The position numbers and the translations under genes are program-made. DNA of 64,000 bases from Escherichia coli (lineage in GTDB: Bacteria; Pseudomonadota; Gammaproteobacteria; Enterobacterales; Enterobacteriaceae): NCBI RefSeq assembly GCF_044647545.1, contig NZ_CP172818.1. The stretch is one strand, 5' to 3'. How positions within the stretch are numbered: position 1 is the first letter of the stretch; every line of letters begins with the position of its first letter. Positions 43,296 through 45,501 of this stretch are shown in pieces. The notes under the pieces are model-generated. The model saw only the letters and a program-made list of their open reading frames with translations, made no database searches and was not told the DNA's origin.

Positions 43296-44885
43296 TTAAT
43301 GGCGGAAGTGGCGCATGTCGGTGAAGAGCATCGCAATACCGTGCTCGTCGGCGGCGGCAATTACTTCGTCATCACGGATAGAACCGCCAGGCTGGATTAC
43401 ACAGGTCACACCCGCAGCGGCGGCGGCATCAATACCGTCGCGGAACGGGAAGAATGCGTCAGAAGCCATCGAGGAACCTTTCACTTCCAGGCCTTCATCG
43501 GCCGCTTTAATACCGGCGATTTTCGCGGAGTACACACGGCTCATCTGGCCTGCGCCAATACCGATGGTCATATTGTTTTTGGCATAGACGATAGCATTGG
43601 ATTTCACGAACTTCGCCACTTTCCAGCAGAACAGCGCATCACGCAGTTCCTGTTCGCTCGGCTGACGTTTGGTGACGACGCGCAGTTCTTCTGCACCGAC
43701 CATCCCCAGGTCTCGATCCTGAACCAGCAGACCGCCGTTCACGCGTTTGAAATCAAGACCCGGAACACGCTCGCCCCACTGACCGCAGGTCAGGACGCGT
43801 ACGTTCTGTTTGGCGGCGGTGATTTTCAGGGCTTCTTCGCTGGCGGACGGCGCAATAATCACTTCAACAAACTGACGAGAAATGATGGCCTGCGCGGTTT
43901 CCGCATCCAGCTCGCGGTTAAAGGCGATAATGCCGCCGAATGCGGAGGTCGGGTCGGTTTTGTACGCGCGATCGTAAGCATCAAGAATGGAATTGCCGAT
44001 AGCCACGCCGCAAGGGTTGGCGTGCTTCACAATCACACATGCCGGCTCGGCGAACTCTTTCACGCACTCCAGCGCCGCATCGGTATCGGCGATGTTGTTA
44101 TAAGAGAGGGCTTTACCCTGAACCTGGGTTGCGGTAGCAACGGAGGCTTCTTTGACATTCTCTTCTATATAGAAGGCAGCCTGCTGGTGGCTGTTCTCGC
44201 CGTAACGCATATCCTGCTTCTTAATGAAGTTCAGGTTCAGCGTGCGTGGGAAGCGACCGGCGGCTTCTTTGCTTTCACCGTGGTAAGCCGGAACCATGCT
44301 GCCGAAGTAGTTGGCAATCATGCTGTCGTAGGCGGCGGTGTGTTCGAAGGCTTTGATGGCAAGGTCAAAGCGAGTTTCCAGAGTCAGGGAGCCTTCATTG
44401 GCATCTATCTCTTTAATAATGGCGTCGTAGTCGCTGCTCTTCACCACGATGGCGACATCTTTATGGTTCTTGGCGGCAGAGCGCACCATCGTTGGGCCGC
44501 CGATATCGATGTTCTCAACCGCATCTTCCAGCGAGCAACCTTCACGGGCAACGGTCTGGGCGAACGGATACAGGTTAACAACCACCATATCGATAGGCTG
44601 GATCTGATGTTCTTCCATAATGGCATCGTCCTGGCCGCGACGGCCCAGAATGCCACCATGTACTTTCGGATGCAGGGTCTTCACGCGTCCATCCATCATC
44701 TCCGGGAAACCGGTGTAATCGGAAACTTCGGTTACCGGCAGACCTTTTTCTGCTAACAGACGGGCTGTGCCCCCTGTAGACAGCAGCTCCACACCGCGTG
44801 CGGAAAGTGCCTGGGCGAATTCGACGATACCGGCTTTGTCAGAAACACTGAGCAGAGCGCGGCGGACTGGACGACGTTGTTGCAT
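43296..44885 (-). CDS. purH: Bifunctional AICAR transformylase / IMP cyclohydrolase PurH, 529 aa
   Basis: ORF track. Confidence 0.96.
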
Positions 44886-44992
44886 GGTAAATCCCCTGGA
44901 TTTGACTATTACAGAGAGCGTTAGCTGAATTTTTCGCGAAAAACTCAGCTAACGCCCCTAACGGGGCATCCTTATTTTTCGCCCGCATTGTA

Positions 44993-45008
44993 ACGAAAAC
45001 GTTTGCGC
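44993..45008. promoter_or_regulatory. PurR operator (PUR box) upstream of purHD
   Basis: ACGAAAACGTTTGCGC, palindromic around AAACGTTT, close to consensus ACGCAAACGTTTTCGT. Confidence 0.6.
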
Positions 45009-45169
45009 AACGCTCGCGAATTTTTCTCTTTCAATGGTGATCAAAATTTTGACAGTGGTTACCGTGGGAAAAATACAGAAATTACATTGATGATTGTGGA
45101 TAACTCTGTGCGTAAAAAGGTATAAAGCGGGGTTTTGCTGGGGAATGCAGCAGTCAGTCATTTTTCTGC

Positions 45170-45370
45170 AATTTTTCTATTGCGGCCTGCGGAGAACTCC
45201 CTATAATGCGCCTCCATTGACACGGCGGATGTGAATCACTTCACACAAACAGCCGGTTCGGTTGAAGAGAAAAATCCTGAAATTCAGGGTTGACTCTGAA
45301 AGAGGAAAGCGTAATATACGCCACCTCGCGACAGTGAGCTGAAAGCCGCGTCGCAACTGCTCTTTAACAA
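45170..45370 (+). promoter_or_regulatory. rrnE control region: P1 (-35 TTGCGG 45180-45185, -10 TATAAT 45202-45207), P2 (-35 TTGACT 45290-45295, -10 TAATAT 45312-45317), boxA (TGCTCTTTAACAA)
   Basis: Hexamers with 16-nt spacing; boxA antiterminator in leader. Confidence 0.8.
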
Positions 45371-45501
45371 TTTATCAGACAATCTGTGTGGGCACTCGAA
45401 GATACGGATTCTTAACGTCGCAAGACGAAAAATGAATACCAAGTCTCAAGAGTGAACACGTAATTCATTACGAAGTTTAATTCTTTGAGCATCAAACTTT
45501 T

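Follow-up and report, generated by a model that had tools for sequence, protein, structure and literature searches.

The stretch of DNA analysed here (the window) is 64,000 nt of Escherichia coli sequence in which purH lies on the minus strand. Control of purHD, a core purine-biosynthesis operon, is usually ascribed to the DNA-binding regulators PurR, RbsR and PhoP. The first-pass annotation had identified the gene from the letters of the window alone, and the open reading frame, its translation and the annotation of E. coli genomes agree with that assignment. The PurR box upstream had also been placed exactly, and its sequence, ACGAAAACGTTTGCGC, is the one found for purH-purD by PurR ChIP-chip (PMC3159470). 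From the purH start through the PurR box, the window is identical to K-12 MG1655. The features of this region are collected in Table 1.

Table 1. Features of the purH control region and leader, with positions in the 64,000 nt window
Feature	Position	Strand	Basis or remark
purH open reading frame	43296-44885	minus	ORF list and translation; annotated purH in E. coli genomes
purH start codon, ATG	44885-44883	minus	
Small hairpin AAAUCC-AGG-GGAUUU containing the Shine-Dalgarno sequence GGGGA	44889-44903	minus	paired in the predicted ensemble
Pyrimidine-rich linker UCUCUGUAAUAGUC, 3' of the helix	44904-44917	minus	conserved
Long stem-loop, 17 bp plus CGCG loop within the 19-nt-arm repeat	44918-44955	minus	fold, pairing probability ~1.0; covariation
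Extended helix, 20 bp	44915-44958	minus	G-run 44958-44956 paired with UCU 44917-44915; competes with hairpin 1
Hairpin 1, GCCCC-GUUA-GGGGC (C-run, then G-run)	44954-44967	minus	5-bp stem, 4-nt loop
Predicted transcription start	44979-44981	minus	~7 nt past the -10; predicted from -10 geometry
-10 hexamer TACAAT	44987-44992	minus	adjoins PurR box directly; putative promoter element
PurR operator (DNA), ACGAAAACGTTTGCGC	44993-45008		same sequence as the purH-purD PurR ChIP-chip motif (PMC3159470)

The PurR-box core GCAAACGTTTTCG is kept in all of the Enterobacterales loci in the leader comparison described below, and TA(C/A/G)AAT occupies the -10 position in every locus showing the PurR-box/-10 pattern. 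The TACAAT hexamer was not flagged by a promoter consensus scan because of its poor -35. As it adjoins the PurR box, and as PurR boxes usually lie between the -35 and the -10 (PMC3159470), we place the start of transcription at approximately 44980, equivalent to 4207627 ± 3 in K-12 NC_000913.3, from which the 5' untranslated region would be about 95 nt long and would hold both of the hairpins described below. The supplements of Kim 2012 and of Cappable-seq contain no purH entry and no coordinate nearby.

Several other motifs were seen around the promoter. Copies of GCGAAAAA or TTTTTCGC are present at 44936-44943, 44975-44982 and also 44931-44938; those at the hairpin tip and at the predicted transcription start make up an 8-nt perfect inverted repeat, 31 nt apart, and the motifs are similar to the CGAAAAC half of the PurR box. 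Approximately 90 bp upstream of the PurR box, the minus strand contains a perfect DnaA box, TTATCCACA (45095-45103), and GAGTTATCCACA is likewise found upstream of the purH promoter in loci L009, L010, L012, L016, L022, L023, L033 and L044, which points to conservation of a DnaA site between purH and rrn. Sub-threshold hits to Ysr197 ('Yersinia sRNA 197') were returned at 45147-45380 on the plus strand (117 bits, against a gathering score of 167) and in L004 (126-369), L024 (1-211) and L031 (738-972). They evidently cover the rrnE promoter and leader, and the family may simply be rrn leader sequence.

Between the predicted start and the gene, the first-pass annotation had reported an inverted repeat with 14-bp arms and one mismatch, about 30 nt from the start codon. 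The repeat and its single mismatch are real, but it is larger than was stated, with 19-nt arms (44918-44936 and 44937-44955) that are 95% complementary and that include TTAGCTGAATTTTT-CGCG-AAAAACTCAGCTAA at 44921-44952. The spacing holds, as the repeat ends 32 nt upstream of the purH ATG. In K-12 NC_000913.3, it corresponds to 4207565-4207602. When the search required arms of at least 16 nt, no more than one mismatch and a loop of no more than 8 nt, this was the only inverted repeat returned from the 64-kb window and none was found in 20 block shuffles, and we conclude that it is not a product of chance. The mismatch, A/C on the plus strand, becomes a G.U wobble when read in the purH sense.

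The first-pass annotation had suggested an RNA fold as a check, and a strong hairpin was indeed obtained. The leader RNA has a folding energy of -40.1 kcal/mol, compared with -26.2 ± 3.2 kcal/mol for shuffled sequences (z = -4.3), and the long helix forms with a probability of approximately 1. In the E. coli fold, this helix can be extended to 20 contiguous pairs, including three G.U. The 20-bp extension is used by the minimum-free-energy folds and by the RNAalifold consensus, and is able to form in nearly all of 27 leaders, with a GAACG/CGUUC version in Brenneria.

Hairpin 1 reads GCCCC-TAAC-GGGGC on the plus strand and has 2 nt in common with the long repeat. A second GC hairpin had been seen here at first pass; it is present, and only its parsing, with a 4-nt loop, differs slightly from the earlier one. 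Across 17 Enterobacteriaceae, 95% of its cells are paired and one pair is altered on both sides. Of the 27 leaders, 21 are predicted to have a hairpin of -4 kcal/mol or better here, for example GCCUC/GAGGU, UCCCG/CGGGA or CCCCG/CGGGG. A terminator-like call on the plus strand at 44954-44967 was set aside, being hairpin 1 on the other strand with a T-run that is not conserved in other genera. A possible leader peptide, AUG CCC CGU UAG, was also rejected; its AUG, abutted by the SD-like AAGGA, is lacking from many Enterobacteriaceae and from every other family. AAGGAUG, at the start of this mini-ORF and immediately 5' of hairpin 1 (44967-44973, minus strand), is found in only about 9 of the 17 Enterobacteriaceae, and we take it to be similar to the CsrA SELEX core ARGGAUG; beside this CsrA-like motif, the SD supplies a second GGA.

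Downstream of the helix, the linker sequence GCTCTCTGT is invariant in 17/17 Enterobacteriaceae, and GCTCT is found in 24 of 26 Enterobacterales leaders, with GTTCT in loci L015 and L028. A TGTAAT hexamer lies between the helix and the SD (44908-44913, minus strand), matches the -10 consensus at 5/6 positions and is present in 16 of the 17 Enterobacteriaceae. Judged on sequence, it is possibly an internal, PurR-independent promoter, or just a part of the conserved linker. The hairpin containing the SD has 98% of its cells paired in the same 17 leaders, shows no covariation and has A, U or C as its first loop base; it is absent from the Erwiniaceae and Yersiniaceae leaders.

Within E. coli, a 321-nt query around the site found matches in 5418 of 5426 complete genomes. 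In 5392 of 5419 genomes the 100-nt leader had an identity of 99% or more, and identity over the wider 321-nt intergenic query was down to 90-95% in 320 genomes. The few natural leader variants inspected are transitions, in loops or keeping wobble pairing. The 100-nt query matched a median of two places per genome, the second of which we read as a self-match of the palindrome on the other strand; on that reading the leader is single-copy and belongs to no repeat family. With the leader so read, and with the repeat the only one of its kind in the window, REP, BIME, ERIC and MITE-like dispersed repeats were rejected as an identity for it.

One genome per species was scanned with the N-terminus of PurH, yielding 80 loci. 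The 26 Enterobacterales leaders among them are from Escherichia, Citrobacter, Kluyvera, Enterobacter, Klebsiella, Erwinia, Pantoea, Serratia, Yersinia, Rahnella, Brenneria and others, and have a recurring order: the PurR box and TACAAT, a C-run/G-run hairpin, the long hairpin, a pyrimidine-rich linker and the SD. The base of the long hairpin is conserved as GCGUUAnCUGA ... UCAnnUAACGCUCU. When the basal 19 pairs were aligned with the register anchored, 87.3% of the cells in the 26 leaders were found to be standard pairs, and 10 of the 19 pairs have changed on both sides; column 8-35, for example, is G-C, C-G, U-G or U-A. The observed values were reached in 0/500 shuffles, a test that related sequences can inflate, and only 32-43% of cells were paired when the partner was slid by 1-3 columns. 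A comparison across the Enterobacteriaceae had been proposed at first pass, and in these 17 leaders 93.1% of the cells of the helix are paired and six pairs have changes on both sides. All three leader helices are 91-98% paired within this family.

The basal register is kept while the length of the tip varies, from the 4-nt loop of E. coli to inserts of >50 nt, largely self-paired, in Serratia and one Klebsiella species. As the base is retained with compensatory changes while the tip is free to change in length, these alignments support a conserved structured RNA, the pairing of which has been maintained by compensatory change across the Enterobacterales. The first-pass annotation had offered two readings of the repeat. 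The 5'-UTR hairpin gains support from the covariation, the G.U wobbles and the tip of variable length. A protein-binding palindrome in DNA does not fit half-sites that are 4 to >50 nt apart, or an E. coli tip that is unconserved beyond a few genera. Because the arm spacing is free to vary between species, an operator of the LacI family (PurR or RbsR) with half-sites at a fixed spacing around a central CG was ruled out.

The leader of Photorhabdus caribbeanensis (L030) is about 250 nt long and has an insertion of approximately 120 nt at the hairpin tip relative to Photorhabdus cinerea (L039). The core of the insertion, GAATCCCTGGGAGC...GACCAGGGTGAGTG, resembles an ERIC/IRU element.

The strand on which the helix acts can be examined through its wobble pairs. 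There are 58 G.U or U.G cells against 11 A.C or C.A cells, although the asymmetry vanishes when counted by column, with 10 columns containing G.U and nine containing A.C. Of 24 distinct hairpins, 18 fold better as the sense strand, and the antisense folds better in six species, especially in Serratia L024.

The purH leaders of nine Vibrionaceae (L035, L036, L040, L042, L046, L048, L050, L057 and L062) are 170-270 nt long, lie behind their own PurR box and include a long hairpin in an equivalent position, about 60-130 nt upstream of purH. Its base, AGGUCUUUACCAAAACUGG ... UUCAUUUUUGGCAAAUAUCUU, is unlike the enteric one, and its tip is variable; 81.8% of cells are paired and 9 of 22 pairs have changes on both sides (0/500 shuffles). 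A YUCUUUAUCU-like linker that follows it is, by eye, similar to the enteric linker. We regard the two hairpins as analogous, whether homologous or convergent. Pasteurellaceae have short purH leaders without such a hairpin.

No known RNA family accounts for the leader. A cmscan search of 44500-45400 at E<=10 returned only spurious miRNA hits in addition to the Ysr197 match over the rrnE promoter, and no leader match to Rfam was found at E<=1 in ten related loci, the scanned loci including four of the Vibrionaceae (L036, L040, L046 and L057). The ZTP riboswitch and other Rfam cis-regulatory families were thus rejected, as no covariance model matched in the window or in the ten related loci. A ligand-sensing riboswitch is not what is found in E. 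coli, since the element is a plain perfect helix without a binding pocket. Rules for RNase III cleavage in vivo have been described (PMC6212723), and the intramolecular helix of approximately two turns that would mark a substrate is present, with 20 contiguous pairs at a probability of ~1. The sole entry between purH and rrsE in the RNase III tables (PMC5371410), at 4207874, is intergenic and outside the hairpin, and none lies in the purH leader. From the predicted start, about 13 nt would be unpaired ahead of hairpin 1, for which reason an ompA-type stabiliser at the 5' terminus probably does not fit.

Tentatively, we favour reading the inverted repeat as the DNA counterpart of an RNA stem-loop that lies in the 5' leader of purHD mRNA and has a cis-acting role independent of PurR. 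A cis-acting structural role is suggested by the finding that the base of the helix and its flanks matter and the tip does not. The helix would act at the level of the RNA, and PurR acts at that of the DNA. Its most likely role would be that of a rigid clamp fixing the fold of the leader, joining the G-run to the CUCU linker and setting the context of the pyrimidine-rich linker and the SD region. As roughly two turns of double-stranded RNA, it is also a plausible determinant of processing or decay and a candidate substrate of an RNase III type of enzyme. In either capacity, the helix would determine how much PurH and PurD is made basally, independently of PurR. As PurH recycles AICAR from histidine biosynthesis, such basal expression plausibly has physiological value.

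A bistable switch that gates purH translation would be a more elaborate role, and is unlikely. Four segments, the C-run (44966-44963), the G-run (44958-44955), the CUCU that follows the helix and the GGGG of the SD (44896-44893), would pair alternately to give hairpin 1, the extended long helix, or a state in which the C-run or CUCU is paired with the SD. The long helix would bring the segments together, and a protein, a small RNA or the speed of transcription would shift the balance. The RNAalifold consensus for the 17 Enterobacteriaceae pairs CCCC with the GGGG of the SD and the G-run with CUCU, and about 60% of the minimum-free-energy folds of single sequences contain both pairings. Hairpin 1 and the helix extension compete for one G-run and both are kept in most species, and enforced conformers are only 1-3 kcal/mol apart. 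However, the partition function for E. coli gives probabilities of ~0.006 for pairing of the C-run with the SD and ~0.10 for hairpin 1, and the anti-SD model from RNAalifold was demoted on account of the former. In addition, the columns that pair with the SD have no changes on both sides, complementarity to a G-rich SD is unavoidable for any GC hairpin, and the effector has no known candidate.

Also unlikely, in our estimate, is that the helix is an RNA operator for a sequence-specific RNA-binding protein, with a variable tip that merely closes the helix. The recognition site would be the basal GUUAnCUGA opposite UCAnnUAAC, with a persistently unpaired C. Four bases of the 5' arm (A7, C9, U10 and A12) do not vary and G11 hardly does, including in leaders whose partner base has changed. 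Of 24 sequences, 13 have a C-C or C-U mismatch at C9, and yet this base has never mutated. The conservation of the basal A.CUGA thus exceeds what pairing requires and hints at sequence-specific recognition, which a clamp or a generic stretch of double-stranded RNA would leave unexplained. Against this, no protein can be named as a candidate, the element matches no known family of protein-binding RNAs, the base of the Vibrionaceae hairpin differs in sequence, and in E. coli the C is simply paired. A k-turn in the Erwiniaceae (CUGA/UGAUG) was ruled out by inspection of the pairing register.

A broader proposal, which we hold to be unlikely, is that the purH leader helix, C-run, G-run, CUCU linker and SD hairpin constitute an unrecognised regulatory RNA switch, responsive to a protein, a small RNA or a metabolite and common to Enterobacterales and Vibrionaceae. 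It would control the AICAR-consuming enzyme independently of PurR in sampled loci that have no ZTP riboswitch match, and would tie purHD output to folate, histidine or AICAR status.

It is doubtful that the repeat is a relic with no present function, such as an old insertion, that has been kept paired by hairpin-templated mutation or correction of the DNA together with slow divergence. Quasi-palindrome correction can mimic compensatory change, and conservation among the Enterobacteriaceae is largely plain sequence identity. Neither a phenotype nor a processing site is to be found in the RNase III tables (PMC5371410) or the Term-seq supplements (PMC7815308). However, pairing outlasts the change in tip length from 4 to >50 nt and does so across families, and the many G.U pairs are not expected from DNA-templated correction. 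Within E. coli the leader is far more conserved than the adjoining intergenic DNA, the element is single-copy with no repeat family, and an analogous hairpin is kept in the Vibrionaceae.

Attenuation of transcription in the leader is very unlikely. Here the long hairpin and a downstream pyrimidine- and U-rich tract would terminate some of the transcripts, with hairpin 1 as a modulator. The base of the helix is GC-rich, and leaders of other genera have 4-8 U in the 12 nt that follow it, and in Serratia, Rahnella, Pantoea and Erwinia the tracts are CUCUUUUAUU-like, with 6-8 of the 12 nt being U. The E. coli tail, CUCUCUGU, has 4 U in 8 and falls below the >=5 U in 8 of an intrinsic terminator, and a terminator scan of the minus strand returned nothing at the hairpin. 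A stem of this length and AU content is not typical of terminators, and there is no purH 3' end among the Term-seq entries consulted (PMC7815308).

Least probable of all is an operator in the DNA, a palindrome that binds a dimeric regulator such as RbsR, for while the site is palindromic, its E. coli tip (TTTCGC/GCGAAA) resembles RbsR/PurR half-sites in everted order and RbsR is listed as binding and repressing the purHD promoter region (Shimada 2013, as cited in PMC10912719; table in PMC10100675), the half-sites are wrongly ordered for a LacI-type operator, the spacing of the conserved arms is 4 to >50 nt, the tip sequence is unconserved between genera, changes of the G.U type are tolerated, the site is downstream of the predicted start, and nothing in what these sources give of the RbsR site puts it on the palindrome.

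A search of the literature found no RIL-seq or CLIP-seq data on the purH leader, and likewise none under 'dyad symmetry'. Flannigan et al. (1990) reportedly mention in their abstract that purHD mRNA begins with two regions of dyad symmetry that exclude one another; if so, the E. coli hairpins were noted long ago, when the locus was sequenced. What is new here is the evidence that selection has acted on the structure in two orders, together with the rejection of a DNA operator, a terminator, a repeat element and a riboswitch family as readings of it. A helix kept by compensatory evolution in enterics, with a counterpart in vibrios, implies an uncharacterised post-transcriptional layer that is absent from Rfam. 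If the helix merely contributes structure or stability, it adds one more routine entry to the list of 5'-UTR structures.

Among known systems, the long 5'-leader hairpins of rnc, pnp and adhE in E. coli are targets of RNase III. The purH leader is like them in having an intramolecular helix of approximately 20 bp upstream of the ribosome-binding site, which it does not cover, and in retaining the length of this helix and not the sequence of its tip. It differs from them in that the RNase III tables show no cleavage in the purH hairpin (PMC5371410), and it differs from a generic double-stranded RNA target in a basal sequence that is conserved beyond need. In many other bacteria, purH is preceded by the ZTP (pfl) riboswitch (PMC10912719), which is likewise a structured leader. 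If the switch reading were true, the enteric leader would be a counterpart of that context. Unlike the ZTP riboswitch, the helix in E. coli is plain and perfect, with no ligand pocket and no covariance-model match. We know of no ligand response for the E. coli purH leader.

Leaders with alternative pairings include the trp type, with its 1:2, 2:3 and 3:4 hairpins, and those of pyrC and pyrD in enterics, where hairpins sequester the SD depending on the start site. The purH leader resembles these in belonging to nucleotide biosynthesis, in the mutual exclusion of hairpin 1 and the extension of the long helix, and in its pyrimidine runs complementary to the SD; it differs in lacking a conserved leader peptide and, in E. 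coli, a U-tract for termination, and switching between start sites is not in evidence. The PurR operator belongs to the same control region and is, like the long repeat, a palindrome in DNA. However, the operator is a fixed 16-bp DNA site, whereas in the long repeat the spacing of the arms varies and the behaviour is that of an RNA helix. The purH element thus appears to be a conserved 5'-UTR stem-loop of a familiar kind, with a putative function that makes it a modest lead and not a surprise.
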